A stretch of DNA of 19,104 bases, from the NCBI GenBank assembly GCA_034722955.1, contig JAYEOM010000036.1, positions 1 through 19,104 of the forward strand. Reading direction: 5' to 3'. A program made the translations under genes and the position numbers. The DNA comes from Campylobacterota bacterium. GTDB lineage: Bacteria > Campylobacterota > Campylobacteria > Campylobacterales > Sulfurovaceae. Shown piece by piece: positions 931-14,982 of the stretch. The notes below the pieces were generated by a model. It ran no database searches and was not told where the DNA came from. It worked only from the letters and a program-made list of their open reading frames with translations. How positions within the stretch are numbered: position 1 is the first letter of the stretch; every line of letters begins with the position of its first letter.

Positions 931-1602
931 TCATCCAGCACCCAAATCCTCTACATACCTAGAGTTTGGTTTTATCTCATCAATAGAGATACCCAACTGC
1001 TCAGAGCTAATCTCAATAATCTTTTTTAAAACTTTCTCCTTTGAGCTGTATATGTCAGATATTACATTGTCATCTATGTATTTAAGCAGGGAAGAGAGCT
1101 TTTTATATCTTCTAGGAACTTCTTTTCCTATAAGTTTTGATAGCAAAAGAAACAATACGAAATAGCTTATAAAAGGAACAAAAATAGTATCAATTATATC
1201 TTTCTTGTAATAATAAAAAATAGCACTTATAGCTATTGTGGGATATAAAAGCATTAAACTCTCTTTTTTGCTTAGCATTAAACTAGTAGGATAAATTTTA
1301 TTGTCAAGTAAATCTTGTAGTCTTTTCCATTTATGTCGAATATCATCACCTAATAACTCTTCCAGGTTAGCATCAGGCACAAGTTCTTCTCTTCTGTTGC
1401 CAAAGTTATCCATAAAAAGTTTTCTAAGTTTATAAAAAGCCACTTGTGAAACACACTTGCTATCACTATCTCTTTTGAATTTATTGAAAATATATGTAGC
1501 CAAATCATCAGGCGTAGCTAAACACTCCATATCTTTATCAGGCAGATATATATCAAACTCATCCTCAACCTCCAGCACCAACTCTACCAATTCAAGTCCC
1601 AT
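931..1602 (-). CDS. Membrane protein with circularly permuted acyl-carrier-protein-like domain
   Basis: N-terminus MGLELVELVLEVEDEFDIYLPDKDMECLATPDDLATYI matches ACP helices II-IV; C-terminus KEKVLKKIIEISSEQLGISIDEIKPNSRYVEDLGAG matches ACP helix I and loop I; two hydrophobic segments in the middle; GAGGGGAG SD. Confidence 0.75.
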   Translation of the reverse strand: MGLELVELVLEVEDEFDIYLPDKDMECLATPDDLATYIFNKFKRDSDSKCVSQVAFYKLRKLFMDNFGNRREELVPDANLEELLGDDIRHKWKRLQDLLDNKIYPTSLMLSKKESLMLLYPTIAISAIFYYYKKDIIDTIFVPFISYFVLFLLLSKLIGKEVPRRYKKLSSLLKYIDDNVISDIYSSKEKVLKKIIEISSEQLGISIDEIKPNSRYVEDLGAG

Positions 1603-1828
1603 CTTGATCTCCCCTCATCAAACTCTCAATAAAACCTGCCTTATAAAACATCCGCAGAGGTTTTTTCTATTTTTCTAAAATGATAGACACTCAGAACGCA
1701 AGGTAAACTTTGGGGTCAGCCGCTACATATCAAGCATTTCTCTTATAATCAAAATATTATAGCTAACATTCAAAACCTCCAAATATTATCCTTTTCATAT
1801 ATGTATTATTTGTTATATGAAAACAAAC

Positions 1829-2491
1829 TTAAACCAGCAACCCCTCATCCGAAAAAGAGTAAAACCCATTTTTAGATAAAATGACATGATCGAGTAGCTC
1901 TATGCCTACTAGCTTGGATACCTCTTTGAGTCTCTGAGTTATCTGTATGTCTGCTCTACTTGCTGCGAGTGTTCCACTAGGATGGTTATGGGCGATGATG
2001 ATACCTGCTGCTCTGTCTGCTATGGCATCGGCAAATACCTCTCTAGGGTGTACTAAGCTCTGGTTTAGAGTGCCTATAAAAACTGTACGAGTATTGATGA
2101 TGTGTGAAGCACCATCGAGAGTAATAGTCAGAAAATACTCTTGTGTTTTTGCAGTAAAAGATTTGAGCTCCTCAAATACATCTTCTGCAGAGGTGATGCG
2201 TCTGTTATTTTGAATAAGGTAGCGTTTGCTGAGCTCTATAGATGCTAATATCTGAGACGCTTTAGCTAAACCCAAACCATGAATATCACAAAGTTTATCT
2301 AGGTTGACAGCATCAAAATCACTATCGAGTAGTGTTATTATCTCTTTAGAGAGTTTACGCACATCATTGCCCCGTACACCAGAGCCAAGAAGCACGCTCA
2401 TAAGCTCCTCATTTTTAAGAGCTTCCGCACCTTTTTTGGCTAATTTTTCTCTAGGTTTATCATGACTATGCAACGCTTTAATACTTTTCAT
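1829..2491 (-). CDS. radC: RadC/UPF0758 family JAB-domain protein
   Basis: KPREKL...GAEAL..EEL N-terminus, HhH motif (IHGLGLAKA), VHPREVF and AHNHPSG...S.AD...T...ELLDHVI JAB motifs. Confidence 0.95.
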   Translation of the reverse strand: MKSIKALHSHDKPREKLAKKGAEALKNEELMSVLLGSGVRGNDVRKLSKEIITLLDSDFDAVNLDKLCDIHGLGLAKASQILASIELSKRYLIQNNRRITSAEDVFEELKSFTAKTQEYFLTITLDGASHIINTRTVFIGTLNQSLVHPREVFADAIADRAAGIIIAHNHPSGTLAASRADIQITQRLKEVSKLVGIELLDHVILSKNGFYSFSDEGLLV

Positions 2492-2671
2492 ACAGTACCT
2501 TTCTGCTCCTAGTTTTACTCTATATCTATTACTACATAAGAGTTTGGTACATCCATTAGAGTTTCAACTTTACCTATGATGGCTATGCAAGTATGCATTA
2601 TGATGTAGATCGTCGTAATGAAAAAGGATATCTCTGCACCCTGCAATTTACTCTTAGCCTAATCAAATCTC

Positions 2672-2680
2672 TGCTACAAT
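2672..2680 (+). promoter_or_regulatory. Putative extended -10 promoter (TGcTACAAT) for the HerA-like ATPase
   Basis: TGCTACAAT about 28 nt upstream of the ATG at 2709, followed by an AAGG SD. Confidence 0.55.
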
Positions 2681-2708
2681 AATAGCATATTAATCAAAAA
2701 GGTTCTGT

Positions 2709-5060
2709 ATGAGTGGGGAGATCTATGAAAAGCTTGGCTTGTTCTATATGGGGAGAGATGTTGAGAGGGAGGGTATGGCTCCTACGGATGCACTGACCCT
2801 GCTAAAAAATAAAAATTTTACTACACATGCAGCGATCATAGGTATGACCGGAAGTGGTAAAACAGGTCTTGGCATTGGTCTCATAGAGGAGGCTGCCATC
2901 GATAATATCCCCTCTATTGTGATAGATCCCAAAGGAGATATGGGAGATCTGTGCTTGACTGATCCATCTTTCTTGGCTACTAGTTTTGAGCCTTGGGTCA
3001 AAGATGAAGCGAGAGCCAAAGGCAGAGAGCCAAATCTATATGCCCAGCAGATAGCAACAGAGTGGAGAGAGGGTATAGAGAGCTGGGGGCAGGATATATC
3101 TCGTGTCCAAAAGTTTAATAGTGTCAAAAAGACTATCTATACGCCTGGCAGCAGTGCCGGTATCAGTATCAATATCATGGCTTCACTAGAGGCACCGCCT
3201 AACGAGATCATGAACGATAGTGACACTCTGTCATCTTTTCTGAAGTCCACAGTCACCAGTCTTCTCTCTCTCGTCGGCATAGAGGCGAACCCTATCGACT
3301 CCAAAGAGTATATCCTCTTAGCACAGATCATCTTGGAAAATTGGACTGATGGTCATAGCATCAGTATAGAGAGGCTCATAGGGAGCATTATCAATCCGCC
3401 ATTCAAAAAAGTAGGTGTTCTCCCCCTAGATAGCTACTATCCTCAGAGTGAACGATTTAAATTTGCGACAAGACTCAATGCACTTATCGCTTCTCCAAGT
3501 TTCAGCTCTTGGCTGCAAGGGGTAGATCTCGATATACAAAGACTCCTGTATGATGAGGATGGCAGAGCAAGGATCGCTATATTTTCGATAGCACATCTCA
3601 ATGACAACGAACGGATGTTTTTTGTGACACTGCTGCTCAACAGATATATCGCTTGGATGCGTCAGCAGAGTGGCACATCAGCACTCAAGACACTACTCTA
3701 TATGGATGAGATATATGGCTATTTCCCTCCGACCAAAAATCCTCCATCCAAAGAGCCGATGCTCCTCCTCCTAAAGCAAGCTAGAGCATATGGAGTAGGT
3801 GTTGTACTGAGTACTCAAAATCCTGTTGATCTCGACTACAAGGGTCTCTCAAATATAGGTACATGGTTTATTGGTCGTCTTCAAACTACTCAAGATATAG
3901 ATAGAGTTATAGATGGTCTAGGAGGCAAGGTGGGATCAGGTTTTGATAGAGGAGATATCAAGCAGATACTATCAAGTATGCCAAAACGCACATTTTTCCT
4001 AAAAAGTGCTCACCTTGATGATATACGACTCTTCTCTACCCGCTGGGTTCTAAGCTACCTCAAGGGACCACTGAAGAGAGGAGATATCTCTATATTGATG
4101 GAGAGCCAAAAAGAGAGTGCAAAATCAAAAGATACTCCCAAAGATACTATATCAAGAGAGGATCAATCACTATATGATAACTACAATACCATAGATAGCT
4201 CAATACCACAATATTATGAAGTTGATGCTCGCGGAGAGAACTGTTTCTCTCCCACTCTGAGAGCATACACAAAAGTTGGTTTTTACAGCCAAAGCAGAGG
4301 TATAGATGAGAAAGAGGAGAGTACTCTTATGCTTGTGGTAGACCCTTTAGATATAGATCTCGACTGGAAGAGTGCAGAGCCTAGCGAAGATCACTTTGAT
4401 CGTCTGCCTAGAGAAGCTCCCAAAGGTGCCAAATATACTAAACTCCCTGATTTTATATACAGAGACAGAGGATTGAAGAGAGCAGTCAAGAGTCTCTCCG
4501 ATATGCTCTATAGAGATAAAAAACTGGAACTCTATCGCTGCAGATCACCCAAACTAGAGTCAAAACCACATGAGATATTGGGTGACTTCAAAGTGCGGCT
4601 TCAAGATCTGCTAAATAGTGAAAAAGAGGAAGATATTGAGGCTCTCAAGGAGAGATATGGGAAAAAGGAGAGTCTGCTTATCGATAGATTGCAGCGAGCT
4701 ATGGATCGTGTAGAGAAAGAGCAGTCAGATGTAAGCAGCAAGATGACAGACACAGCTATAACTGCGGGGATGGCTATACTAGGTGCACTTTTCGGGAGAA
4801 AAAGCTCTGCAAAAATAGGCTCGACACTAACCAAAGGATCACGCATTCTCAAAGAGAAAGGAGATGTGACTAGAGCAGAAGAGAAGGCTCAAGCCGTTCA
4901 GACTAAGATCGATGATCTTGGAGAAGAACTTGAAGAGAGAGTAGATCAACTTATGGATCGTTACTCTATCGACAACTGCACTATAGAGAGCTTCTCCATC
5001 AAGCCAAGAAGAGCTGATGTAGTTATAGATGATATAGGTTTAGTCTGGACTGCAAATTGA
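2709..5060 (+). CDS. HerA/FtsK-superfamily P-loop ATPase (DUF87/COG0433-like) with C-terminal coiled coil
   Basis: Walker A HAAIIGMTGSGKT, IDPKGD, Walker B LLYMDE, arginine finger QARAYG, STQNP motif; charged helical C-terminus. Confidence 0.85.
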   Translation: MSGEIYEKLGLFYMGRDVEREGMAPTDALTLLKNKNFTTHAAIIGMTGSGKTGLGIGLIEEAAIDNIPSIVIDPKGDMGDLCLTDPSFLATSFEPWVKDEARAKGREPNLYAQQIATEWREGIESWGQDISRVQKFNSVKKTIYTPGSSAGISINIMASLEAPPNEIMNDSDTLSSFLKSTVTSLLSLVGIEANPIDSKEYILLAQIILENWTDGHSISIERLIGSIINPPFKKVGVLPLDSYYPQSERFKFATRLNALIASPSFSSWLQGVDLDIQRLLYDEDGRARIAIFSIAHLNDNERMFFVTLLLNRYIAWMRQQSGTSALKTLLYMDEIYGYFPPTKNPPSKEPMLLLLKQARAYGVGVVLSTQNPVDLDYKGLSNIGTWFIGRLQTTQDIDRVIDGLGGKVGSGFDRGDIKQILSSMPKRTFFLKSAHLDDIRLFSTRWVLSYLKGPLKRGDISILMESQKESAKSKDTPKDTISREDQSLYDNYNTIDSSIPQYYEVDARGENCFSPTLRAYTKVGFYSQSRGIDEKEESTLMLVVDPLDIDLDWKSAEPSEDHFDRLPREAPKGAKYTKLPDFIYRDRGLKRAVKSLSDMLYRDKKLELYRCRSPKLESKPHEILGDFKVRLQDLLNSEKEEDIEALKERYGKKESLLIDRLQRAMDRVEKEQSDVSSKMTDTAITAGMAILGALFGRKSSAKIGSTLTKGSRILKEKGDVTRAEEKAQAVQTKIDDLGEELEERVDQLMDRYSIDNCTIESFSIKPRRADVVIDDIGLVWTAN

Positions 5061-5086
5061 CTATATTTCGGGCTTAAGGTTACCCC

Positions 5087-5199
5087 CAATGCCAATGAAT
5101 TAAGCAAATCATAGAGTCCGATAGGAGCTGAGGCTTTAGCCTCAGACATTAGGTGGAGTCAAAGCAGCACTTCAAAAAATCCTTATTTCATTGGCATTA
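5087..5199. mobile_element. 113-bp MITE-like element with IS4-type terminal inverted repeats
   Basis: Left end CAATGCCAATGAATTAAG (5087-5104) vs reverse complement of right end TAATGCCAATGAAATAAG (5182-5199), 16/18 identical. Imperfect 10-bp flanking direct repeats AGGTTACCCC (5077-5086) and AGGCTACCCT (5200-5209). No transposase. Confidence 0.6.
5128..5145. repeat. REP-like palindrome CTGAGGC-TTTA-GCCTCAG
   Basis: Perfect 7-bp stem with 4-nt loop inside the MITE, between the convergent ATPase and pyrE genes. Confidence 0.7.
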
Positions 5200-5214
5200 A
5201 GGCTACCCTAATGA

Positions 5215-5820
5215 CTAGTCTCTGCTTCCTGGCTTGATCGCTTGGCTACCCTCTGCACAGAGTGGGCAGCTCTCAGGGGAGTACATAGCAAACTCGAAAT
5301 CTTCCAATGCAAAAAAAGCTGCATCTTTAGGCAGTTTGCACTCTGCTTTTGCCTCTATATCACTCCCCTCTCTCTGGCAAAAACCGCGATTTGCCAGTGC
5401 TGCGAAAGCGACAACTTCAGCACCAAGCTCTTCGATGACCGATGCAGCTTCCATAGCAGAGCCTCCAGTAGTGATGATATCTTCACAGATGATAATCTTT
5501 TCACCTCTGCTAACTTCAAAACCGCGACGAAGCTCCATACTACCCTCTTTGCGTTCGACAAAGATACTTCTAGTACCTAGAGATCTCGCTAGCTCATACC
5601 CAGCCAACAGACCACCCATAGCAGGAGCACAGACCGTATCTATCTCTATGCCGCTCTCTTGGATCATCTTAGCTAGTTCATTTGACAAAAGCTCTGCTCT
5701 TTTAGGATCCTCTAGTACCTTCGCACTCTGTAGATATCTGTTTGAGTGATTGCCGCTACTGAGTATGAAGTGACCCTCGAGCAGTGCACCGGACTCTCTG
5801 TATTTCTCTTCTACATTCAT
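5215..5820 (-). CDS. pyrE: Orotate phosphoribosyltransferase
   Basis: [24 protein letters not shown]-binding [15 protein letters not shown]-terminal CPLC...KPGSR; directly downstream of frr. Confidence 0.97.
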
Positions 5821-5823
5821 AAC

Positions 5824-6381
5824 TTATACTTTCAGTATATCTGCTTCTTTTGTTTTGAGCGTATCATCTATCTTTGCGATATACTCATCTGTTATCTTCT
5901 GTACCCTATCAAGACCTTTTTTCATCTCATCTTCACTGATCTCTTTATCTTTCTCTAGCTTCTTGACATGATCGTTGCCATCTTTGCGGATATTGCGAAC
6001 GGCTACCTTGCTCTTTTCGCTCATTACTTTGGCCTGCTTGACGATCTCGTGTCTCTGATCTACCGTCATAGGAGGGAAAAATAGCTTGATAAAGTCACCG
6101 TCATTGTTGGGGTTTACACCTATGTTGGCCTCTTGGATCGCTTTTTCTATAGTAGAAAGCAGTGATTTTTCCCAAGGAGTGATAGAGATAGTCGTAGCAT
6201 CCATAGCGATGACATTTCCTACTTGATTGAGTGCTGTAGGTGTACCGTAGTAGTCAACTTTGATATTATCGACGATTGTAGTGGTCACTTTACCGGTTCT
6301 TAGCGTAGAAAAATCACGCTTCATCGCATCAACACTCTTCTCCATATGCTCTTGGGTATTATCATAAATTTCATTTAACAT
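5824..6381 (-). CDS. frr: Ribosome recycling factor
   Basis: [45 protein letters not shown] motifs; 185 aa. Confidence 0.98.
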
Positions 6382-6412
6382 GCTCTTTCTCCTTGGGGTT
6401 ATGATTTTGGTT

Positions 6413-6429
6413 TGCCCCGATAGGGGGCA
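6413..6429. other. GC-rich hairpin between secG and frr (TGCCCC-GATAG-GGGGCA)
   Basis: 6-bp stem; no U-tract follows on the minus (coding) strand, so more likely an mRNA stability or processing element than a terminator. Confidence 0.45.
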
Positions 6430-6436
6430 TTCTGCT

Positions 6437-6904
6437 TTAGTGGGTTGCCGGCTTAGGAGCTTCTGTGCTCTCTGTTTTGGTATCTACTGCCGGGGCTTGG
6501 GGGACTGCCGATGTTGTTTCTGGGACTGCCGATGTTGTTTCTGGGACTGACGATGTTGTTTCTGGAACTGTCGGGGTTGTCACAGCTGGTGCCGAAGGTG
6601 CTATCGGTGCTACAGCTGTCGGTGTCTCTGCCGAAACAGGCACGGCTGACTTAACTGTATCGACAACTGATTTGTTATTCTCTTTGGTATATAGATAACC
6701 CAATGCCAGTGTATTGAGTACAAATAGAAGGGCAAGTATAAAGGTTGCTTTTGCCAGAATACCCATCGGTCCTTTGGCTCCAAACATAGATTCGTTACTC
6801 CCACTATAGGCACCTAGACCAATACTGGAACTTTTCTGCAGTAGTACGGCGACTGTGATAGCAAGTGCTAGAACAATCTGCACGATTAGTAGTGTTGATG
6901 TCAT
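6437..6904 (-). CDS. secG: Preprotein translocase subunit SecG with extended Pro/Thr/Ala-rich tail (155 aa)
   Basis: Start reassigned to ATG at 6904 (GAGGAA SD). [27 protein letters not shown]...LAKATF is the Campylobacterota SecG signature; two TM helices; upstream of frr. Confidence 0.93.
6501..6570. repeat. 21-bp tandem repeat, about 3.3 copies, encoding VPETTS(A/S) in the SecG tail
   Basis: GGGACTGCCGATGTTGTTTCT at 6501-6521 and 6522-6542, GGGACTGACGATGTTGTTTCT at 6543-6563, partial GGAACTG at 6564-6570. Confidence 0.95.
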
Positions 6905-6951
6905 TGATTCCTCTTTAAAATTAGGTCTATAGAGAGTTACTCCTAACCTAA

Positions 6952-6982
6952 TTTGGGTATAATTTTGTGGATTATACCCAAA
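6952..6982. promoter_or_regulatory. Perfect 12-bp inverted repeat with TATAAT in each arm; putative bidirectional secG/bioC promoter
   Basis: TTTGGGTATAAT (6952-6963), 7-nt spacer, ATTATACCCAAA (6971-6982), between the divergent starts at 6904 and 7007. Confidence 0.65.
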
Positions 6983-7006
6983 AAAATATGAAAATGAGTT
7001 AAATGA

Positions 7007-7723
7007 ATGACGAGGGTTTCCCAAGAATTTTCCAGATTTGCCAGTAGCTATAACCAAAACAACACTGTTCAAGCAGAGGTAGCCAAGAAGCTTGTATCTA
7101 TGCTGCCTAAAAAAGCCTACCCTAGTATACTTGATTTAGGGTGTGGCAGAGGAGAGATATACCAAAATCTCATCGATCAAAAGATAGACTATGCCCACTT
7201 GACAGCAGTAGATATCTCCAAGGAGATGCTTTGGCTACACCCTAAAGAGGATAGAGTTACACTGCTAAATGAGGACTTCAATAGCCAACAGATGGCAGAT
7301 AAACTTTCACGCAAGAGCTATGACCTTCTCCTCTCCTCATCTGCACTACAGTGGAGCCAAGATTTGGATACTACACTATCTATGTTTGCACCCATCTCAT
7401 CAAACTTCTATAGTGCTATTTTTACTGCTGGGACATTTCGGTCGCTGCATAAGTGTGCAGGTATCACCTCTCCCATATATAATGAAACCGTACTCAAAGA
7501 GAAAATAGACAAATATTATGATGTCGAATATGAAACTGTTCGATACACTCTTCACTTTGAAAACATCTATGATATGTTGCGTTACATCAAAGAGAGTGGT
7601 ACTAGTGGTGGTGAACGAAGATTGAGTTATAGAGAGACAAAACATCTGATTAGGAGTTACCCTTATGACTATTTGGAGTTCGAAGTCCTCTTTGTGCATC
7701 CAAAAAGTGAAAATATCTTATAA
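7007..7723 (+). CDS. bioC: SAM-dependent methyltransferase, BioC-like (malonyl-ACP O-methyltransferase)
   Basis: FSRFASSY....VQ.EVA..L N-terminus, ILDLGCGRG motif I, VDISKEML, DLLLSSSALQW; neighbour of secG as in other Campylobacterota. Confidence 0.75.
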   Translation: MTRVSQEFSRFASSYNQNNTVQAEVAKKLVSMLPKKAYPSILDLGCGRGEIYQNLIDQKIDYAHLTAVDISKEMLWLHPKEDRVTLLNEDFNSQQMADKLSRKSYDLLLSSSALQWSQDLDTTLSMFAPISSNFYSAIFTAGTFRSLHKCAGITSPIYNETVLKEKIDKYYDVEYETVRYTLHFENIYDMLRYIKESGTSGGERRLSYRETKHLIRSYPYDYLEFEVLFVHPKSENIL

Positions 7724-7726
7724 GTA

Positions 7727-7735
7727 TGCTATACT
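7727..7735 (+). promoter_or_regulatory. Putative extended -10 promoter (TGcTATACT)
   Basis: TGCTATACT about 31 nt upstream of the ATG at 7767. Confidence 0.5.
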
Positions 7736-7766
7736 ATTTAAAATAATACAAAATAAGGTTTATGTT

Positions 7767-8567
7767 ATGAATTGGTATCAAAAATTACTAATCACTCTCT
7801 CTGTTATGTTACTCTTGACTCCTGCAAGTTATGCAGAGCATATATGGGTAGGACTCTACGCCAAAGGCACAGATATGGCAGCACAGTCGATCGTAAGCAG
7901 AGAGTATCTGCCCGATATGGGTGATGCTATAGAGACAGAATGGAAGAAAGGTTTTTATCTTGTTGACTTGGAGCAGGGTGGTCGCACTTGGATGGGTATC
8001 TTTGCCAAGGGTACAGGATATACCGCCCAATCTTATCTGCATAGTAGCAATTGGAACAAATTTGCCGAAAGCATCGACAAGAAGAAGAGCGAGGGCTATG
8101 ACCTCATAGATGTCGAGTATGGCGATGCAGAGTGGGTTGGTGTATTTGCCAAAGGGACAGGGTATAAAGATCAAGTCTATACTGCCGATCGAGAGTGGAA
8201 AGATTTCCAAAAAACACTAAAAGAGTATTGGGGCAAGGGATATGCTCTGACTGAAGTTGAAGCAGGCGGTGGCAAATGGGTAGGTGTTTTTGCTAAAAAT
8301 ACAAAACTTAAAGATCAGAGCTACATCAGCTTGGATGAGTGGAGTGCTGTTCGTCAAGTGATCCGTGAACAGTGGGACAATGGTCATCAAATCACCAAAC
8401 TTGAGTATGGAGAGGGGCGTTGGTTTGTACTCTTTACCAAAGATGTTTTATGGCAAGAGCAGGCTTATAGCAGCAACTACGGATGGGAACGGTTTAGAGC
8501 CAAACTCAAAAGCTACTGGAGAGAGAACTATGATATCATCTCTATATCTAGCGGATGGAACGACTAA
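7767..8567 (+). CDS. Secreted protein with five ~48-aa tandem repeats (DUF7477/BTRD1-like)
   Basis: Start reassigned to ATG at 7767 (AAGG SD). Signal peptide ending ASYA, then five repeats of W-x-G-V-F-A-K-G-T-G-Y-x-x-Q-S-Y...W...W-x-x-G-Y-x-L-x-x-V-E-x-G. Confidence 0.8.
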   Translation: MNWYQKLLITLSVMLLLTPASYAEHIWVGLYAKGTDMAAQSIVSREYLPDMGDAIETEWKKGFYLVDLEQGGRTWMGIFAKGTGYTAQSYLHSSNWNKFAESIDKKKSEGYDLIDVEYGDAEWVGVFAKGTGYKDQVYTADREWKDFQKTLKEYWGKGYALTEVEAGGGKWVGVFAKNTKLKDQSYISLDEWSAVRQVIREQWDNGHQITKLEYGEGRWFVLFTKDVLWQEQAYSSNYGWERFRAKLKSYWRENYDIISISSGWND

Positions 8568-8579
8568 AGCAGGCTTAAG

Positions 8580-8966
8580 ATGGATTCTCAAAGTATAGGC
8601 AAATTGATCTTACGGATTGCGATTGGCGGTCTGTTGCTCTTTCATGGTGTAGATAAGATTTTGCATGGTATTGGATATATAGAGAGTCTGCTCAAGATAG
8701 AAGGGCTGCCTCCATATTTGGCATTTGGTGTCTATGTTGGAGAGATTTTGGCTCCTCTGATGTTGTTGGTCGGATGGAGAAGCAGATGGTGGGCATCCAT
8801 TATTGCTTTCAACATGGCTGTAGCGATCTATCTAGTACATAGCAAATCCCTCCTCACCCTAGGCTCTCATGGCTCTTGGTCACTAGAGACACCGGTACTC
8901 TTTTTGATGGGTGCCTTGGCGATTATCTTTTTAGGGTCTGGTAAGTATGCTATCTCCAAGGATTAG
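8580..8966 (+). CDS. DoxX family membrane protein
   Basis: LILRIAIGGLLLFHG..K, GE....L..L.G..SR, NMAVAIYLVH, C-terminal G.GKYAI; four TM helices, 128 aa. Confidence 0.9.
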   Translation: MDSQSIGKLILRIAIGGLLLFHGVDKILHGIGYIESLLKIEGLPPYLAFGVYVGEILAPLMLLVGWRSRWWASIIAFNMAVAIYLVHSKSLLTLGSHGSWSLETPVLFLMGALAIIFLGSGKYAISKD

Positions 8967-8973
8967 GAGTGTT

Positions 8974-9909
8974 GTGAAACTAAGTTATCTCATACCTCTT
9001 GTTGTATTGTCGATATCGGTAAATGCCGAGACTACAGAGCCTTGGGCGAAAGCACTGAAGGGGTTGACTCCTCAAGAGAGACATGTCATAGTAGACAAAG
9101 GAACAGAGCGACCTTTCTCAGGTCAATATCTCCATACCGACAGTAGTGGTATCTATCGTTGCAAAGTTTGCAATACAGCTCTCTATAGATCTGATGATAA
9201 GTTTATATCCCATTGCGGCTGGCCTAGTTTTGATGATGCGATACCCGGTGCCATAAAGAAGCAGAGAGATAGTGATGGAAGACGCACTGAGATTCTATGT
9301 GCCAAGTGTGATGCTCACTTGGGGCATCTGTTTGAAGGAGAGGGGCTAACAGCCAAAAATAGACGATACTGCGTAAACTCTATCTCATTGAACTTTGAAG
9401 ATAATAGATCAACTCTACCCTCTCAATATCGGCATGCCTATTTTGCAGGTGGATGTTTCTGGGGAGTTGAGTACTATCTCGAAAAGCTAGATGGAGTTAA
9501 AGAGGTCATATCCGGTTTTATGGGTGGCAGTGTTAAAAACCCCAGCTACTCTCAGGTCATGAGTGGCGATACAGGACATATTGAGACAGTTGATGTACTC
9601 TATGATCCCAAGACAATATCTTACGAAAAATTGGCAAAAACTTTCTTTGAGATTCATGACCCCACACAAAAGAGTAGACAAGGTCCCGATATTGGCGAGC
9701 AGTACCAATCGGCTATTTTTGTAACAGATCTAAAAGAGAGGGAGACTGTAGATAGTCTCATTAAGGTTTTGATAGAGAGGGGCTATAGAGTAGAGACCAA
9801 AGTTTTGAGTGTAGAGTCGTTCTATAGTGCAGAGGCATATCATCAGGACTACTATAGACGCAAAGATAGAGAGCCATATTGCCACAGCTATATCAAACGC
9901 TTTGAGTAG
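8974..9909 (+). CDS. msrAB: Bifunctional peptide methionine sulfoxide reductase MsrB-MsrA with signal peptide
   Basis: Probable GTG start at 8974 after AGGAG; signal peptide ending SVNA. MsrB motifs GTERPF, CxxC twice, CGWPSF, HLGHLF, RYCVNS; MsrA motifs FAGGCFWG, GHIE, HDPTQ, QGPDIG.QY.S, AE.YHQDY. Confidence 0.93.
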   Translation: MKLSYLIPLVVLSISVNAETTEPWAKALKGLTPQERHVIVDKGTERPFSGQYLHTDSSGIYRCKVCNTALYRSDDKFISHCGWPSFDDAIPGAIKKQRDSDGRRTEILCAKCDAHLGHLFEGEGLTAKNRRYCVNSISLNFEDNRSTLPSQYRHAYFAGGCFWGVEYYLEKLDGVKEVISGFMGGSVKNPSYSQVMSGDTGHIETVDVLYDPKTISYEKLAKTFFEIHDPTQKSRQGPDIGEQYQSAIFVTDLKERETVDSLIKVLIERGYRVETKVLSVESFYSAEAYHQDYYRRKDREPYCHSYIKRFE

Positions 9910-10014
9910 TATCTGATATATAGAGTTAGGAAGTTATCAAAACAGATCTACCCATCTGACTAGCTCTTTTTAAAAGCTATTTGAGTGTATCATGTAAAAA
10001 ATAGGAGGCTACAA

Positions 10015-11202
10015 ATGGGCATAGAGAGTATTGAAAAACAAAAAACTTCTGCATTGGCGTTATCAGGTGGTGGATATAGAGCTGCACTGTTTGCACTTGG
10101 CAGTCTATGGCGCCTTAATGAATTTGGCATATTAAGAAAACTAGATCGTATCACCGCAGTCTCTGGCGGATCGATCACATTGGGGCATCTGGCACTCCAC
10201 TGGAGTGATCTTGAGTTTGATGATCATGATGTCGCTAAAAATTTTGAAGAAGTTGTCGTAAAGCCTTTACAGAAGTTTTGCGGTGAACCTTTAGATGTCA
10301 AAGCAGGCATTATAGGCTTGTTGACTCCTTGGAAAACTATAGGCGATAAGATCACTGAAGCTTATGATGATAAACTGTTTGACAGGGCTCTACTCAAAGA
10401 GCTGCCTCATGGCAAAGGTATTCCGGAATTTATATTTTACGCTACAAATTACGGAACAGGTTCAAGCGTCCGTATGACACAAGATCATATTTATGACTAC
10501 AAATTAGGAGAAGCACCCTCCGGAGACCTCTCTCTCGCACGGGCAGTCGCAGCTTCCAGTTCCTTTCCCCCCATATTTTCTCCTGTGATACTTGACTCAA
10601 GTAAGTGGAACTGGAAGCGAACAGATCACTCTGATCTACACGATAATAGAGCTTTGCGTGATCGACTTGTACTTGCAGATGGCGGACTCTATGACAATCT
10701 TGGAGTGGAGGCTATCTGGAAGGATGAAGAGGAGAGTAGTGACCATTTTGATCAAGTGTTTGTCTGCAATGCCGGTGCACCTTTCAAAGTAGGTTTTGAT
10801 ATGAAGGGTGGGCCACTCTCTACTCTCATACAAAAGATCGGACTCAAAAGAAATTGGATCACACAATTTTCTCGCATGACAACTATCATGATCAACCAGC
10901 AGCGTGCCGTTAGAAAGCGTTATTTGATGACCAATACAAAGTATGGAGCATACAGAGTAGCTTACTGGGCTATACCAACAAATATATCCAAGTATGATGT
11001 AGAGAACAGACTCGCTTCTGATACTCCAACGACCAAATGTATAGCAGAGATACCTACGCGGCTGAAGGCATTTTCCCATGAAGAGCAGGGGCATCTGATC
11101 AATTGGGGATATGCACTTACAGATGCTGCTGTTAGGTGCTATATAGACTCAGACCTTAAGAGGGCAGAGAGAGTTCCTCTGCCGGATCATCCTCTAGGTT
11201 GA
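10015..11202 (+). CDS. Patatin-like phospholipase
   Basis: Start at ATG 10015 after AGGAGG. Oxyanion loop LSGGGYRA, nucleophile AVSGG (Ser codon 10162), AASSSFP, catalytic DGGLYDNLG (Asp codon 10678). Confidence 0.92.
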   Translation: MGIESIEKQKTSALALSGGGYRAALFALGSLWRLNEFGILRKLDRITAVSGGSITLGHLALHWSDLEFDDHDVAKNFEEVVVKPLQKFCGEPLDVKAGIIGLLTPWKTIGDKITEAYDDKLFDRALLKELPHGKGIPEFIFYATNYGTGSSVRMTQDHIYDYKLGEAPSGDLSLARAVAASSSFPPIFSPVILDSSKWNWKRTDHSDLHDNRALRDRLVLADGGLYDNLGVEAIWKDEEESSDHFDQVFVCNAGAPFKVGFDMKGGPLSTLIQKIGLKRNWITQFSRMTTIMINQQRAVRKRYLMTNTKYGAYRVAYWAIPTNISKYDVENRLASDTPTTKCIAEIPTRLKAFSHEEQGHLINWGYALTDAAVRCYIDSDLKRAERVPLPDHPLG

Positions 11203-11228
11203 TATGATAATTTATAATGGAGTAAAAG

Positions 11229-12386
11229 ATGAGCATATGGCATAAAACATCATATTATGATGAGGTCTGCACACATGTTTTGGTCATAGGAACAAGCAAG
11301 TATACTTATCTTCCTGATGATATAACAAGCGATGATGAGAAGCTTCTGGGTCTGACCTCTGTTTCGACACCCGCCACTTCTGCTTACCGTTTTGCTTGTT
11401 GGATCAAAGAGAGCTACAATAACTCCAAAGCACCGCTAGGAAGCATACGCCTCCTTCTAGCACCATCCCAAAAAGAGATCGACAATGAACCTCAACTAGG
11501 CCAGCTCAACCAGCCTCTCCCCGATAGTTCAAATGTTGAGGATGCACTCTATGCTTGGCAGAACGACTGTTTGAAGTTTCGAGAAGGTCACTGCATTGTC
11601 TATATTGCCGGACATGGTATTCGGCTTTCCGGTGATTTGGGTATTGTGCTGTTGGAGGATTTTGGAAAGCCAAATAGATCTATTTTGGAGGGAGCTCTTG
11701 ATATCGGCAATATTCATCAGGCTATGGCTCAGGATAGTGCGGCTAAAAACCAATTTTACTTTGTGGATGCCTGTGCGATCGAACCAAAACTCTTTGCTCA
11801 GTATATATCAGCAAAGACAGGGATCAATCTGGATATAAAACGGGGGGAATCTGTTGAATCATCACCTATATTTTTTGGAGCTGCCCCTGAAACATTGGCT
11901 TTAGGAAAACCGGGAGAGGGTACCCTTTTCATACAGGTACTTTTACAATGCCTGCGATCTGATGCAGCCAAAGCAGATGATCAAAACAACCCTAAAAATT
12001 GGCTGGTTTCTACGCTTGAACTTTTCAAACAGTTACAAAAAGGTGTGAAAGAACTTGCTATGAGTTACAACGAAACACAATCTGTTGTACTTGGCGGAAT
12101 CTCTTCAAATACTGTTTTTCATGAATCAGAAGATCCTCCTGTTATCACTTTGACAGTCTCCCTCTCTCCCCAATCAGCAGTGCAGTATGCAAAATATACA
12201 CTGATCAATCTTACAACAAATGAAAAGTTTGAGCTTTTTCCTTTTGAGTCTCCTTATATCGATGTGGTAAATCCGGGGGTATACCGTATCGAATTTGATA
12301 TGACTGAAGATTCACATCACTCTGGTAAAATAGTTCCAGCGATCATTATCTCCCCTCCGAGACATGATGAGGAGATTGTATTATGA
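11229..12386 (+). CDS. Caspase-like (peptidase C14) cysteine protease with C-terminal PEGA-like beta domain
   Basis: N-terminal strand HVLVIG...Y, catalytic His in YIAGHG (H129), catalytic Cys in YFVDAC (C182), G.GTLF...LL.CL helix; C-terminal ~80 aa beta-rich with VNPGVYRIE. Confidence 0.88.
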   Translation: MSIWHKTSYYDEVCTHVLVIGTSKYTYLPDDITSDDEKLLGLTSVSTPATSAYRFACWIKESYNNSKAPLGSIRLLLAPSQKEIDNEPQLGQLNQPLPDSSNVEDALYAWQNDCLKFREGHCIVYIAGHGIRLSGDLGIVLLEDFGKPNRSILEGALDIGNIHQAMAQDSAAKNQFYFVDACAIEPKLFAQYISAKTGINLDIKRGESVESSPIFFGAAPETLALGKPGEGTLFIQVLLQCLRSDAAKADDQNNPKNWLVSTLELFKQLQKGVKELAMSYNETQSVVLGGISSNTVFHESEDPPVITLTVSLSPQSAVQYAKYTLINLTTNEKFELFPFESPYIDVVNPGVYRIEFDMTEDSHHSGKIVPAIIISPPRHDEEIVL

Positions 12387-13699
12387 AAAAGATATTTTTA
12401 TATGATTTTTCTGATGATCACTCTACACTCTCTCCGGCAACACTCAATGTGAAAATATCAGAGTATTATGATTTTCCTTTGGTGATACGAAAAAGTAATT
12501 TTCAGCTTCAAGGTTACAGCAGGACAGATGGAACCATCGTATTGGATCCGGGATTATATATTATTGAAGCTGTGAAACCTGATGGTGAGATAGAGAGTGA
12601 AATAGTAGATCTCAAAACTGGTGATGCCAAAGAGTTGAAACTCACTTTCACTCCAGAAAAAAATATTGAAAACAAAAAAGAGCTCTTAGAGGAGGAGTCC
12701 GAAGAGAGATTTGAAGATCTATTGATGATGACTGCCCCAAAAAACAGATCATCTGATGTGGATACCAAGGCATCTGCTACATTTAGACCTTTCCCGGGTG
12801 ATGCTTATGGATCTTTGAGAAATACCAAGGCATCTACTACATTTAGACCTCGCCAGATCAATAAAAAGTTTATCCCTAAAAAAGAGGCTATAACAGTAAA
12901 AATACTCTCTTTTAACGAGAAAGGTTGGCAAGAGGAGAGAGAGTTGTCGGGAGCAGAAAACTTTAATAGAGAGACCACAGATAGCAGTGATCATATCAGG
13001 ATAGATATTGATGCTCTAGAGTATCTGCAGATCTTGGAGGTCAGCAGAAACAGAGATAAACCGACTAATTTACTACTACCCATCCAAAAAAACTCAATGA
13101 TCGAGAGATGTACCGTAGAGATAGTGGACAATGGGGTGGATCTTAAGCTCTCCTGCTCTTTTGAGGATAGCAAGCGTACTACACTCATGTTTGATTACCT
13201 TTCGAGCAACTCTCTTGAAGAGGCAGCAGGTCTTGCCGAAGAAGCTGAAGGCATGCTATATAGTAAAATGAGCAATCCTATAGGAGCAGTGATAGGGGGT
13301 TATATTCTGTTGCGTATCGGTGCTGTCGAGCAGATGCACGATTGGCCGAAAAATTTATATGAGTGGTTTCCAAGGTTATCTGATGGTGCTATTATTGCAG
13401 GAGAATTTGAAGCTAGAAGAGGTAATGATAGAGAAGCTATAGATCTATTCTTGGGTGCATATAAACGAGGACTGCCTATCTTTCGTGAGGGGCTCTCTCT
13501 TTTGGTTGCAAGATTGCGTCTGTATATGCTTTATGAGAAAGAGTTATTGATCAATGAAACAAAACAAAAAGAGATAGAGTTAGCCTATTCATATCTGGCT
13601 AAACTAGCGATGTTTACAGATGATGCATATGGACTGCTAGTTATTGATAATATCTCATTGATCGAGGATGAATATTTTAAAAGGAGTGCAAATGTTTAA
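12383..13699 (+). CDS. Uncharacterised caspase-associated multidomain protein (PEGA-like N-terminus, repeat-containing linker, beta domain, helical C-terminal domain)
   Basis: ATGA overlap with the caspase stop and a GAGGAG SD. LDPGLYIIE beta domain; C-terminal NPIGAVIGGYILLR...HDW..NL..WFP.LSDGAII...RGLPIF.EGL helical region. Confidence 0.8.
   Translation: MKKIFLYDFSDDHSTLSPATLNVKISEYYDFPLVIRKSNFQLQGYSRTDGTIVLDPGLYIIEAVKPDGEIESEIVDLKTGDAKELKLTFTPEKNIENKKELLEEESEERFEDLLMMTAPKNRSSDVDTKASATFRPFPGDAYGSLRNTKASTTFRPRQINKKFIPKKEAITVKILSFNEKGWQEERELSGAENFNRETTDSSDHIRIDIDALEYLQILEVSRNRDKPTNLLLPIQKNSMIERCTVEIVDNGVDLKLSCSFEDSKRTTLMFDYLSSNSLEEAAGLAEEAEGMLYSKMSNPIGAVIGGYILLRIGAVEQMHDWPKNLYEWFPRLSDGAIIAGEFEARRGNDREAIDLFLGAYKRGLPIFREGLSLLVARLRLYMLYEKELLINETKQKEIELAYSYLAKLAMFTDDAYGLLVIDNISLIEDEYFKRSANV
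12762..12850 (+). repeat. In-frame 29-bp direct repeat, two copies, 60-bp period (TKAS[A/T]TFRP twice)
   Basis: ATACCAAGGCATCTGCTACATTTAGACCT (12762-12790) and ATACCAAGGCATCTACTACATTTAGACCT (12822-12850), one mismatch. Confidence 0.92.
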
Positions 13700-14771
13700 A
13701 GTCGAACTGATACAGGCTGGACATGGTGACTCTATATGGATCGAGTATGGCAGGGATCCGGACTCTCTCCATCGTATCCTGATCGATGGAGGTACGGCCG
13801 GCACTTTCAAGCGTCTCAAAAAGCGTATTGAGCAGTTACCTTCCGATAAACGGCATTTTGATCTTCTTGTCATTACCCATATTGATGCAGATCATATCGC
13901 AGGAGTGCTGAAACTGCTCGAAGAGGATAGTCTGGGTGTGACATTCGGTGATATATGGTATAACGGGTATCAACATTTGAGCAGCCTGGAGTCTCTAGGG
14001 GTTAAGCAGGCAGAGATCCTTTCAGACTATTTGGACAAACTTGATATCCACTGGAATCAAGCTTTTGGCGGCAAATCAGCCTGCATAGATAGAGAGAAAG
14101 AGTTTTTACCTATCGTTCTGCCCGGAGGTATGAAGCTTACACTCCTCTCTCCTTCTCTAAAAGAGTTGGCAAAGCTGAAACCAAAGTGGGAGAGGGAAGC
14201 AGAAAAAGCTGGACTTTTTCTAAATAAGAAGCCTGAAGAGAGAGAAGAGCTAGATACGAGTCCCTCCGGACTTGAATCACTAGGGGGAGCTAAATTGCCC
14301 GATATTGAGAGTCTGGCAAAAAGTATTTTTGAACCAGATGATTCACTGCCAAACGGCAGCAGTATCGCACTTATCACCGAGTATGATGATAAAAAAATGC
14401 TTTTTGCCGGAGATGCCCATGCTGCTGTACTTCTTGACTCTATCAAAGCGTATCTTCCTGGGTGTCAACCTCTCTATCTCGATCTCTTCAAAGTACCCCA
14501 TCATGGAAGCGAAGCCAATATCTCCAAAGCGTTACTAGAACGGATACGATGCAACTCCTACCTGATCTCATCCAATGGTGCCTATTTTAAACATCCTGAT
14601 GAAATTGCCATAGCCAGGATCATCAAATACGGCGGAAATAAACCGGATATCTACTTTAACTACTTGTCAAAACACAATGATATATGGAACAATCCAATTT
14701 TGCAAAAGAGGTATCAATATCAAGCACACTACCCATCAAGCGAAGAGACGAGTATTGTTGTGTCGGTTTAG
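13692..14771 (+). CDS. Metallo-beta-lactamase-fold hydrolase/nuclease (ComEC/Avs1a-like)
   Basis: Start reassigned to ATG at 13692 (AAGGAG SD, 8-nt overlap with the upstream gene). Motifs GHGDS, ILIDGG, THIDADH (HxDxDH), NGSSIA, LFAGDA, KVPHHGS, HP. Confidence 0.9.
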   Translation: MFKVELIQAGHGDSIWIEYGRDPDSLHRILIDGGTAGTFKRLKKRIEQLPSDKRHFDLLVITHIDADHIAGVLKLLEEDSLGVTFGDIWYNGYQHLSSLESLGVKQAEILSDYLDKLDIHWNQAFGGKSACIDREKEFLPIVLPGGMKLTLLSPSLKELAKLKPKWEREAEKAGLFLNKKPEEREELDTSPSGLESLGGAKLPDIESLAKSIFEPDDSLPNGSSIALITEYDDKKMLFAGDAHAAVLLDSIKAYLPGCQPLYLDLFKVPHHGSEANISKALLERIRCNSYLISSNGAYFKHPDEIAIARIIKYGGNKPDIYFNYLSKHNDIWNNPILQKRYQYQAHYPSSEETSIVVSV

Positions 14772-14823
14772 GTGCAGCACTCTTTTTTTGGCTCTTTGGT
14801 TTATTATTTTAGCGTAATGTTTG

Positions 14824-14982
14824 TTACTTTTTTGTGAATTTTATAGAGTCTATATTCAGCTTATTAAACTCATCAATAGCCACAATAGCACCATCAAATC
14901 GCTCTTGCAATAGAAGATCTCCTATGTTCCCTGCATCAAAAATTTGGGTATTTAGTTGGTAGGGTAATATATATGTAACCAC
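14824..14982 (-). pseudogene. 52-codon open frame, possible C-terminal gene remnant or small protein
   Basis: GTG at 14982 to TAA at 14824: VVTYILPYQLNTQIFDAGNIGDLLLQERFDGAIVAIDEFNKLNIDSIKFTKK; protein-like composition, no clear SD. Confidence 0.3.

Follow-up and report, generated by a model that had tools for sequence, protein, structure and literature searches.

Canu is a caspase-nuclease anti-phage defence made up of CanA, CanB and CanC, whose nuclease is activated by a caspase-like protease (Tuck et al., Science 2025, PMC12799240). Its description, published in 2025, was based on a single tested set of three genes, KaeCanABC of Klebsiella aerogenes, with products of 390 aa (KaeCanA), 347 aa (KaeCanB) and 356 aa (KaeCanC). 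According to the parts of that paper used here, CanA carries a C-terminal Ig-like domain, CanA and CanB form a complex, and the three genes protect against T4 without any patatin (PMC12799240); the core mechanism can thus do without one.

Here we describe a four-gene operon which we take, with reasonable confidence, to be a horizontally acquired Canu-type abortive-infection system with an extra phospholipase gene. An earlier note on this DNA, while half recalling "caspase-nuclease loci", had not recognised the combination as a named system; for the last three genes this has to be revised, as their order, lengths and motifs match those of Canu. What is new at the locus is the linkage of a patatin to this already named core, and we found no description of a patatin-Canu linkage in the literature.

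The operon and its surroundings

The window (the whole stretch of DNA analysed, 19,104 nt) contains four tightly coupled genes on the plus strand between positions 10015 and 14771, as checked by translation of the open reading frames (Table 1). Patatin and caspase are separated by 26 nt, in which no promoter-like site was found, while caspase and gene 3 overlap by ATGA and gene 3 and MBL by 8 nt. AGGAGG lies 6 nt ahead of the patatin ATG. For the MBL gene a longer frame opens at 13668, yet AGGAG sits ahead of 13692. Terminator-like sites such as the one at the operon end are not enriched (4 found vs 3.7 expected in shuffles). The operon is preceded by msrAB (8947-9909) and, beyond a 250-nt spacer, followed by an unrelated gene (253 aa) and a gene for a NIT hybrid histidine kinase. 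All four genes are single-copy in the 2.5-Mb genome. A dense defence island was not seen in the window, the only match of this kind nearby being a weak HerA-like one. The coupled, co-directional arrangement, its placement between msrAB and unrelated sensor genes and the intact catalytic motifs of patatin, caspase and MBL had all been reported in the earlier note; the coordinates agreed, and every residue named there was found on translation.

Table 1. Coordinates of genes, motifs and predicted sites of the operon
Feature	Position	Strand	Length	Basis or remark
Patatin-like phospholipase	10015..11202	+	395 aa	Pfam Patatin 1e-18
Patatin oxyanion motif GGGYR, residues 18-22	10066..10080			
Patatin nucleophile S50 in AVSGG	10162..10164			
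Patatin D222 in DGG	10678..10680			
CanA-like caspase-family protease	11229..12386	+	385 aa	Pfam Peptidase_C14 4.6e-7
Caspase catalytic H129 in GHG	11613..11615			
Caspase catalytic C182 in DAC	11772..11774			
CanB-like adaptor (gene 3)	12383..13699	+	438 aa	Precomputed family PF27295 on close homologues
CanC-like gated MBL pro-nuclease (predicted)	13692..14771	+	359 aa	Pfam Lactamase_B 6.6e-11; PADLOC MBL models
MBL metal motif HIDADH, residues 63-68	13878..13895			
Predicted caspase recognition site 1, LESLG, residues 99-103	13986..14000	+		Gating insertion 1 of MBL
Predicted caspase recognition site 2, LESLG, residues 194-198	14271..14285	+		Gating insertion 2 of MBL
MBL metal motif HHGS, residues 270-273	14499..14510			
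Terminator-like hairpin and T-run, operon end	14756..14789	+		Pattern match only

Genes 2 to 4 compared with KaeCanABC

Genes 2-4 match KaeCanA, KaeCanB and KaeCanC in order, size and motifs, the sequences having been compared by eye, unscored, on the printed sequences of the published system. Since the three genes are homologous to CanA, CanB and CanC and stand in the same order, the core of the operon corresponds to the named system, and from its sequence we consider it very probable that it encodes a Canu system. The proposal of the earlier note that the operon encodes an anti-phage system with a protease-activated MBL pro-nuclease agrees exactly with the mechanism described for Canu, and its idea of a third protein gating the caspase fits the published CanA-CanB complex.

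In this by-eye comparison the caspase matches KaeCanA over its whole length, with common blocks AGHG and FVD-x-C, the latter being the block of the published catalytic mutant C187A (PMC12799240). Its C-terminal extension of about 85 aa resembles the tail of KaeCanA as printed, and carries PP, G350 and P376 invariantly in 4/4 caspases aligned (the window and three other caspase-CanB loci). BLASTP of this tail against the N-terminal beta-sandwich of gene 3 gave no alignment.

The AlphaFold2 model of the gene 3 product (pLDDT 70.4) consists of a beta-sandwich (residues 5-87), a disordered variable linker (93-165), a second beta-sandwich (170-259) and a helical TPR-like domain (264-410). The Pfam scan returned nothing for gene 3 itself, while 10 close homologues are assigned to the family listed in Table 1, and the gene-3 profile matched 2674 cluster representatives at E<=1e-3. 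Foldseek found nothing at E<=0.001 and gave weak matches to transthyretin/CnaB-like and TPR folds; PDB sequence searches with the caspase, gene 3 and patatin products each returned no match. As far as the printed KaeCanB can be compared by eye, the two proteins are alike near the N-terminus, in the PGLY strand, and in their C-terminal block of helices. The position of gene 3 between caspase and MBL is the same in the window and at L002, L003 and L037 (see below).

The MBL scored highest with the defence-system MBL models of PADLOC (LmuA-MBL 6.1e-80, RTasMBL 3.2e-51, Avs1a 1.7e-44); with the NCBIfam Avs1a model it reached 231 bits, under the cut-off of 420. The closest solved fold to its model (pLDDT 91.3) is the MBL domain of ComEC (9ic4, E 5.6e-13), an ungated domain of 266 aa, compared with which the protein is about 90 aa longer. 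The two LESLG loops are its least confident segments, with mean pLDDT values of 69 (block 101-110) and 67 (block 191-200, the lowest in the protein). THIDADHI, KVPHH and both loop sites are shared with the printed KaeCanC, by eye: the first LESLG aligns with LEGLG ending at G104, which makes G103 the equivalent of the published G104, and the second corresponds to LESMG. The substitution G104K abolished defence in KaeCanC (PMC12799240). The loop class follows the partner protease: PhiExPhiG occurs twice in all five MBLs that could be linked by contig to a CanB homologue or caspase (the window, P0138, P0140, P0173 and L037), and the MBLs P0142-P0172, 60-67% identical, bear another loop class, KS[RN]I-RG. 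Reading KS[RN]I-RG as a site cut after Arg was considered and dropped, since the cuts in HamM are reported to map to after Ile residues (PMC12799240).

In the mechanism we propose, the CanA-like caspase (H129/C182) and the CanB-like adaptor would act as an infection-sensing protease module. Once triggered, the caspase would cut both flexible LESLG insertions of the CanC-like MBL, and the pro-nuclease, when cut, would degrade DNA indiscriminately and so stop the infected cell; complex formation by CanA and CanB, loop cleavage and DNase activity are predicted here by analogy with KaeCanABC. The patatin, first gene of the operon, would be a second effector attacking membrane phospholipids, and its genomic context suggests that it is probably controlled by that protease module as well.

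Distribution of the block and linkage of the patatin

The four-gene block is accessory. No copy of gene 3 turned up in 13 same-genus, 11 other same-family or 16 same-order genomes (0/40 in total), and none of the four genes was found downstream of msrAB at 6/6 same-genus loci. The earlier note had named a core and syntenic locus as a result that would refute its reading, and this check came out in favour of the note. A search of 400 further genomes from the phylum matched the MBL in three and the patatin in two (both weak matches); it yielded no further Canu-like locus, the MBL matches (G014, G020, G386) being without gene-3 or caspase neighbours. A 5897-b contig from another habitat is 89% identical over 10034-14755, exactly from patatin to MBL, and is then unlike the window. 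Caspase-CanB-MBL triplets were located in other phyla, in Flavivirga (L002), Streptomyces (L003) and Sinorhizobium (L037). The gene-3 alignment search returned only distant loci, two in genome contigs and three in metagenome contigs (L027 and L028 being the same in sequence).

At least five more contigs or plasmids carry the patatin together with CanB or CanABC, and this linkage is kept at 50-74% protein identity. On a 3405-b contig of a Bacteroidales assembly the patatin and a CanB homologue are two accessions apart, and homologues of both were placed on a 4861-b and a 7613-b contig, the latter also with an MBL; for three contigs co-location was deduced from equal contig size and sources, not from DNA sequence. 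Two Sinorhizobium americanum plasmids carry a 36%-identical patatin, divergent and 64 bp from caspase-CanB-MBL, which belongs to a different patatin clade from that of the window (split support 100/99). At 17 plasmid loci with the window patatin subfamily an MBL gene lies within 5 kb in 12, and ten of these 12 also have a caspase, an S8 protease or an unassigned 629-aa protein whose family is labelled serine protease in one record. NCBIfam did not name either the 629-aa or the 308-aa partner. The linkage to CanB and MBL is not universal, because a 12227-b and an 11632-b contig carry a CanB homologue and an MBL with no patatin among the 120 best patatin matches (a patatin below about 45% identity would escape); the triplets of Flavivirga and Streptomyces likewise have no adjoining patatin.

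None of the PADLOC models, CapV-type effectors included, matched the window patatin. Its family greatly exceeds that of CanB in size, as 7762 of no more than 8000 scored candidates matched at E<=1e-20, against 2674 cluster representatives for CanB, and most patatins of the family must therefore act in other contexts. No Canu-type PhiExPhiG motif was present in the window patatin or in six close homologues scanned, nor did a narrower cleavage pattern run on 26 patatin homologues find one. An N-terminal IESIE in the window patatin was rejected as a cleavage site, as it is not conserved in the homologues.

Such observations would suit an improbable alternative, in which genes 2-4 are a complete Canu and the patatin is an independent neighbour, a single-gene defence or lipid-metabolism gene hitch-hiking uncoupled in a mobile block: KaeCanABC as described works without one, the patatin has no Canu-type cleavage motif and belongs to a very large family, several related loci have no patatin (on the two CanB-MBL contigs, no close homologue), and defence genes cluster for reasons besides common mechanism. 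An uncoupled passenger, however, does not readily account for the 26-nt junction with the caspase, where no promoter-like site was found, for an 89%-identical copy bounded by the patatin start and the MBL end, for a linkage that persists at 50-74% identity and, divergently, in another patatin clade on rhizobial plasmids, or for an MBL within 5 kb at 12 of 17 plasmid loci with several different proteases. We judge it probable that the patatin functions within the Canu system, and propose it as an accessory second effector co-inherited with Canu-type genes.

How it would be switched on is less certain, and activation through cleavage by the caspase is put forward only tentatively. Patatin similarity stays about constant (32-42%) across loci with very different proteases and MBLs (caspase, S8, 629-aa family), unlike what is expected of a co-evolving protease substrate. 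This steadiness, like the lack of a cleavage motif, would fit a patatin that belongs to the system without being a caspase substrate, acting upstream or in parallel, for example as a sensor of membrane perturbation, or being released by the adaptor, the cut nuclease or a small molecule. We hold this to be quite unlikely, as positive evidence for another cue was not found, the operon contains no cyclase or other signal-making enzyme, and the upstream slot of related caspase-CanB loci is taken by astacin-type peptidases or alpha/beta-hydrolase-like genes, which fits an effector better than a sensor. Known astacin-type members are made as zymogens. The dual-effector idea of the earlier note gains comparative support from the co-inheritance of the patatin with Canu and with protease and gated-MBL modules at large. 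Activation of the patatin through cleavage by the caspase receives no direct support, the patatin and the homologues scanned having no PhiExPhiG site like those of the nuclease loops.

It is very improbable that the operon serves no anti-phage role and instead has housekeeping or developmental tasks (turnover of lipids, uptake or processing of DNA by a ComEC-like MBL, regulated proteolysis), or that it is a module for programmed death or for conflict between bacteria whose trigger is not viral. In favour of this reading stand the ComEC competence domain as closest solved MBL fold and the single weak HerA-like match in place of a dense defence island. Against it, none of the related genomes searched has the block, the homologous KaeCanABC is reported to protect against T4, the MBL scores highest with defence-system models, and plasmid homologues adjoin CBASS genes, DUF1837 genes and transposases.

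Significance and comparison with known systems

With the preferred reading, a Canu-type system joined by a phospholipase, Canu reaches a further phylum and habitat with both cleavage-site loops kept, and the case for a general caspase-to-pro-nuclease mechanism is strengthened. The recurrent patatin partner, linked in two separate patatin clades with a caspase, S8 or other presumed proteases, suggests that protease-gated immunity can drive two effectors at once, and raises the testable question of whether a bacterial phospholipase can be a caspase-controlled pro-enzyme. The window patatin subfamily beside a gated MBL offers a search rule for further systems, and near-identical nuclease scaffolds that switch their loop motif with the partner protease form a natural data set on protease-substrate rewiring. 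A wider generalisation, which we regard as doubtful, would be a three-part bacterial death module with a constant patatin, a swappable protease unit (caspase and CanB, subtilase S8 or the 629-aa family) and a gated MBL pro-nuclease, so that one proteolytic switch licenses membrane and DNA executioners.

The window shares with Canu, as published, a caspase, partner and MBL nuclease in that order and of similar sizes, the catalytic His/Cys and MBL metal motifs, two insertions each with an L-E-x-[LM]-G site, and an accessory, horizontally spread distribution. It differs in the added upstream patatin gene and in a gene 3 product that is 91 aa longer, with its disordered variable linker.

HamMAB (Hachiman), Avs1 (AVAST type 1), Lamassu-MBL and DRT-MBL, as far as described in PMC12799240, have an MBL pro-nuclease of the same family with two gating insertions, and the nearest relatives of the window MBL (60-67% identity) bear the Ile-containing loop class. 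In those systems the protease forms a fusion, as a trypsin domain, with HamA, a STAND NTPase or LmuA, whereas the window caspase stands alone, helicase, STAND, SMC and reverse-transcriptase genes are missing from the window, and the loop motif is PhiExPhiG. No open reading frame for a STAND NTPase with a fused trypsin-like protease, as in AVAST type 1, was found in the window; nor were the SMC-type genes LmuB/LmuC of Lamassu, and only the MBL, not the other three genes or the flanks, matches the PADLOC Lamassu model (LmuA PDLC03854).

CBASS with CapV also employs a patatin-like phospholipase as presumed membrane-destroying abortive-infection effector, but neither a CD-NTase cyclase domain nor a nucleotide signal was found in the operon or the window, and the window patatin falls in a subfamily of its own, with proteins of about 390 aa. 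Type IV Thoeris and gasdermin-linked proteases, in the descriptions available, likewise use a caspase-fold protease as a cell-death switch, whereas the window has no TIR, gasdermin or CARD gene and the proposed substrate is a pro-enzyme encoded next door.

In eukaryotes, caspase-3 activates the patatin-like iPLA2-beta. During apoptosis it also frees the DNase CAD from ICAD (reference 57 of PMC12799240). One caspase thus commands a DNase and a patatin-type phospholipase A2 as its two executioners, an analogy of logic which does not imply common descent. Should the three-part module prove true, it would be a bacterial counterpart of this activation, with the window as its caspase-type form and the published Canu as a two-thirds version.

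Operon structure and genomic setting

The four co-directional open reading frames that the earlier note had described as an operon are real and are joined as claimed, by a 26-nt gap, an ATGA overlap and an 8-nt overlap, with purine-rich ribosome-binding sites upstream of the starts. Translation confirmed that the catalytic motifs are intact: S50 and D222 in the patatin, H129 and C182 in the caspase, and HIDADH (63-68) and HHGS (270-273) in the metallo-beta-lactamase (MBL) protein. The neighbours also agree with that description, with msrAB upstream and, downstream, a sensor-kinase operon that is unrelated and has a lower G+C (0.34 versus 0.42). A terminator-like hairpin (pattern match only) lies 3' of the operon, followed by a 250-nt spacer and the sensor-kinase operon. 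The spacer holds a 35-nt element that recurs, in either orientation, on contigs C102, C91 and C9 of this genome (G000); it has very high summed contig depth in 4/4 metagenome runs and might be an operator or a dispersed short palindromic repeat.

Features of the window and their positions
Feature	Position	Strand	Database match
RadC/JAB gene	1829-2491	-	
HerA/DUF87-like ATPase, 783 aa	2709-5060	+	PADLOC HerA about 1e-11, mad8 1e-10
secG frame	6437-7072	-	
Gene next to secG frame	7007-7723	+	
Patatin	10015-11202	+	Pfam Patatin 1e-18
Caspase	11229-12386	+	Pfam Peptidase_C14 4.6e-7
LEDFG, caspase residues 142-146	11652-11666		
Gene 3	12383-13699	+	Pfam: no match
Gene 3 linker, residues 93-165	12659-12877		
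MBL	13692-14771	+	Pfam Lactamase_B 6.6e-11
35-nt element	14934-14968		

The HerA/DUF87-like ATPase, which is divergent from the RadC/JAB gene, may be another conflict-type gene; no catalogued partner was found nearby in the window. The secG frame is listed as 211 aa. Since its SecG domain covers residues 61-127 only and 66 nt of the frame are shared with the next gene, the true secG start is probably later.

The operon is accessory in its lineage: searches of 13 same-genus, 11 further same-family and 16 same-order genomes did not find gene 3. Of the 13 same-genus genomes, 10 have a full-length msrAB match. At the six same-genus msrAB loci examined, msrAB is followed by none of the four genes and not by the sensor operon; four of the six have convergent ORFs of comparable size there. 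The genes after msrAB in the fetched locus L022 have their G000 counterparts at the start of contig C32 (4494 b), so the variable region after msrAB takes in, at a minimum, the four-gene operon together with the sensor operon, and continues beyond the end of the contig. Elsewhere in the phylum, searches of 400 genomes detected the MBL family in three and the patatin in two, both weakly. The closest patatins among the matches listed (73-74% identity) come from Bacteroidales assemblies.

The predicted MBL nuclease, its putative gating loops and gene 3

The MBL matched the PADLOC models LmuA-MBL (6e-80), RTasMBL (3e-51) and Avs1a (2e-44), and by sequence it is assigned to the protease-partnered MBL family; its NCBIfam Avs1a match lay below the model's cut-off. 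The MBL nucleases of Hachiman, AVAST, Lamassu and DRT are described as pro-enzymes, in which two insertions block activity until a partner protease cuts them (PMC12799240). A structure model of the window MBL, built from a 71-sequence alignment (pLDDT 91.3), has its four lowest 10-residue blocks at 101-110 and 171-200, which are the two insertions, and its closest solved fold is the ComEC MBL domain (266 aa).

The loops were surveyed in 122 aligned MBLs, namely the best 120 homologues listed and the MBLs of the caspase-CanB-MBL loci L002 (Flavivirga algicola) and L003 (Streptomyces lutosisoli). Strict LE.[LM]G sites occur twice in 24 of these, once in 10 and not at all in 88. The wider pattern PhiExPhiG, a predicted caspase-recognition pattern in the gating loops of CanC-type MBLs (those of the caspase-nuclease anti-phage system Canu), is present in both loops of many more MBLs, those of L002, L003 and L037 (Sinorhizobium americanum) among them. 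The MBLs nearest to that of the window (P0142-P0172, 60-67% identity) belong to a different loop class, KS[RN]I-RG, which recalls the Ile sites where cleavage of HamM has been mapped (PMC12799240). Because all MBLs that could be placed beside a CanB homologue or caspase (window, P0138, P0140, P0173, L037) are of the PhiExPhiG class and near relatives differ, the loop motif, not the scaffold, appears to track the partner. The P0142-P0172 loops suggest that one nuclease scaffold was recently rewired to another protease type.

Gene 3, which is CanB-like, had only 10 word-sharing homologues; a profile including three distant members besides the close homologues retrieved 2674 cluster representatives at E<=1e-3, of which 627 reach E<=1e-30. 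Its model (pLDDT 70.4) consists of two beta-sandwiches, a disordered linker whose length varies among homologues, and a helical domain. Foldseek returned weak matches only, to transthyretin/CnaB-like sandwiches and TPR proteins, which agrees with the Ig-like and TPR folds reported for canu loci (PMC12799240). Homologues of gene 3 stand between caspase and MBL in F. algicola, S. lutosisoli and S. americanum. Its type of helical domain also occurs in giant trypsin and PLD proteins 3' of related caspases on rhizobial plasmids. In two such plasmid loci, L004 and L005, an astacin peptidase is followed by a caspase and a giant protein of 1374 or 1788 aa, with the CanB-like helical domain, trypsin and PLD domains in one chain, which looks like a fused adaptor, second protease and nuclease-type effector.

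Linkage of the patatin

A contig of 5897 b, from another study and another habitat, matches the window at 10034-12784 and 12854-14755 (89% identity), with 69 nt of the gene 3 linker (12785-12853) replaced by 15 nt. It is unlike the window past both ends, and the shared block is therefore the four genes and nothing else. A Bacteroidales contig of 3405 b carries two genes with accessions two apart, one for a 74%-identical patatin and one for an incomplete CanB homologue (54%). Judged by equal length and sources, a 4861-b contig would hold patatin and CanB homologue together, and a 7613-b contig patatin, CanB homologue and MBL. Two S. americanum plasmids carry caspase-CanB-MBL with a patatin gene (36% identity) 64 bp away in divergent orientation; the MBL there is 41% identical to that of the window, with loops IESLG and VESLG, and the patatin falls in a well-supported clade apart from the window's in a tree of 20 sequences. 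Together, these contigs and plasmids argue that the patatin is part of the travelling unit. Against a universal linkage, two contigs with a CanB homologue and an MBL have no patatin among the 120 best patatin matches.

A patatin search gave 20 plasmid records, of which 17 loci were analysed; the three left out, H31, H41 and H48, look like repeats of L038, L048 and L037 (species, record length, coordinates). In 12 of the 17 loci (weakly in L040 and L042) the patatin has an MBL-family gene no more than 5 kb away, and patatin, MBL and a protease or candidate protease occur together in 10 (caspase in one, S8 protease in two, a 629-aa family in seven); these are uncontrolled counts, and 15 loci are Hyphomicrobiales plasmids, not independent. 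No MBL-family gene was found within 5 kb in L045, L046, L047, L052 or L053. The 629-aa family received no assignment from Pfam or NCBIfam; a 29%-identical relative is labelled serine protease in one record. The S8-linked MBLs match the same PADLOC models as the window MBL (1e-46 to 7e-53). Several of the patatin loci adjoin CBASS, DUF1837 or transposase genes, and other caspase-CanB loci have an astacin peptidase or alpha/beta-hydrolase-like gene in the slot before the caspase.

Further arrangements were seen on individual plasmids. In L042 (Agrobacterium, 1026-6583) the patatin and then a DUF6615 gene come after an MBL-like gene and a gene for an E2/E1(ThiF)/JAB fusion; in L045 (Rhizobium) the patatin-DUF6615 pair lies directly 3' of an IS6 transposase gene, without the upstream genes of L042. 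L046 (Bradyrhizobium, 2761-10005), another protease-rich set without an MBL, combines the patatin with a divergent S8 peptidase gene and with DUF2252, PLD-like and CHAT-domain genes.

The patatin is a plausible candidate for a second effector of the operon. No PhiExPhiG site was found in it or in the close homologues scanned, no PADLOC model matched it, and patatin similarity across loci does not follow protease type.

Comparison with Canu

Canu loci are described as a further MBL clade, paired with caspases (Tuck et al., Science 2025, PMC12799240). In the Klebsiella aerogenes version, KaeCanABC, the caspase CanA carries an Ig-like tail and co-purifies with CanB, and CanAB makes a potent nuclease of CanC; the system gives E. 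coli protection from T4, which is lost on mutation of the catalytic residues or of either loop glycine (PMC12799240). Genes 2-4 of the window have the KaeCanABC order, with 385, 438 and 359 aa against 390, 347 and 356 aa. By eye and unscored, the printed sequences share with the window proteins the stretches that surround the catalytic His and Cys (KaeCanA), the PGLY strand and C-terminal helical block (KaeCanB), and the metal motifs and both loop sites (KaeCanC). Loop 1 is LEGLG ending at G104 in KaeCanC and LESLG ending at G103 in the window MBL; loop 2 is LESMG and LESLG (194-198), respectively. The core of the operon, genes 2-4, is very probably a new Canu member. Between its catalytic His and Cys, the window caspase has a LEDFG that fits PhiExPhiG; since the KaeCanA counterpart differs by eye, it is probably a core strand, not a processing site.

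KaeCanABC, as described, needs no patatin, whereas the window operon has one; with none in L002 and L003 either, linkage of a patatin to a Canu-type core is not universal. No published description of patatin linkage to caspase, MBL or subtilase sets was found in the literature searched. The main text of Tuck et al. (PMC12799240) nowhere mentions patatin, phospholipase or lipase, and patatin is likewise missing from its xlsx supplement; the docx supplement, outside this scope, may bear on the linkage. The core is thus of an already described type, and the four-gene operon as a whole is a new form of it.
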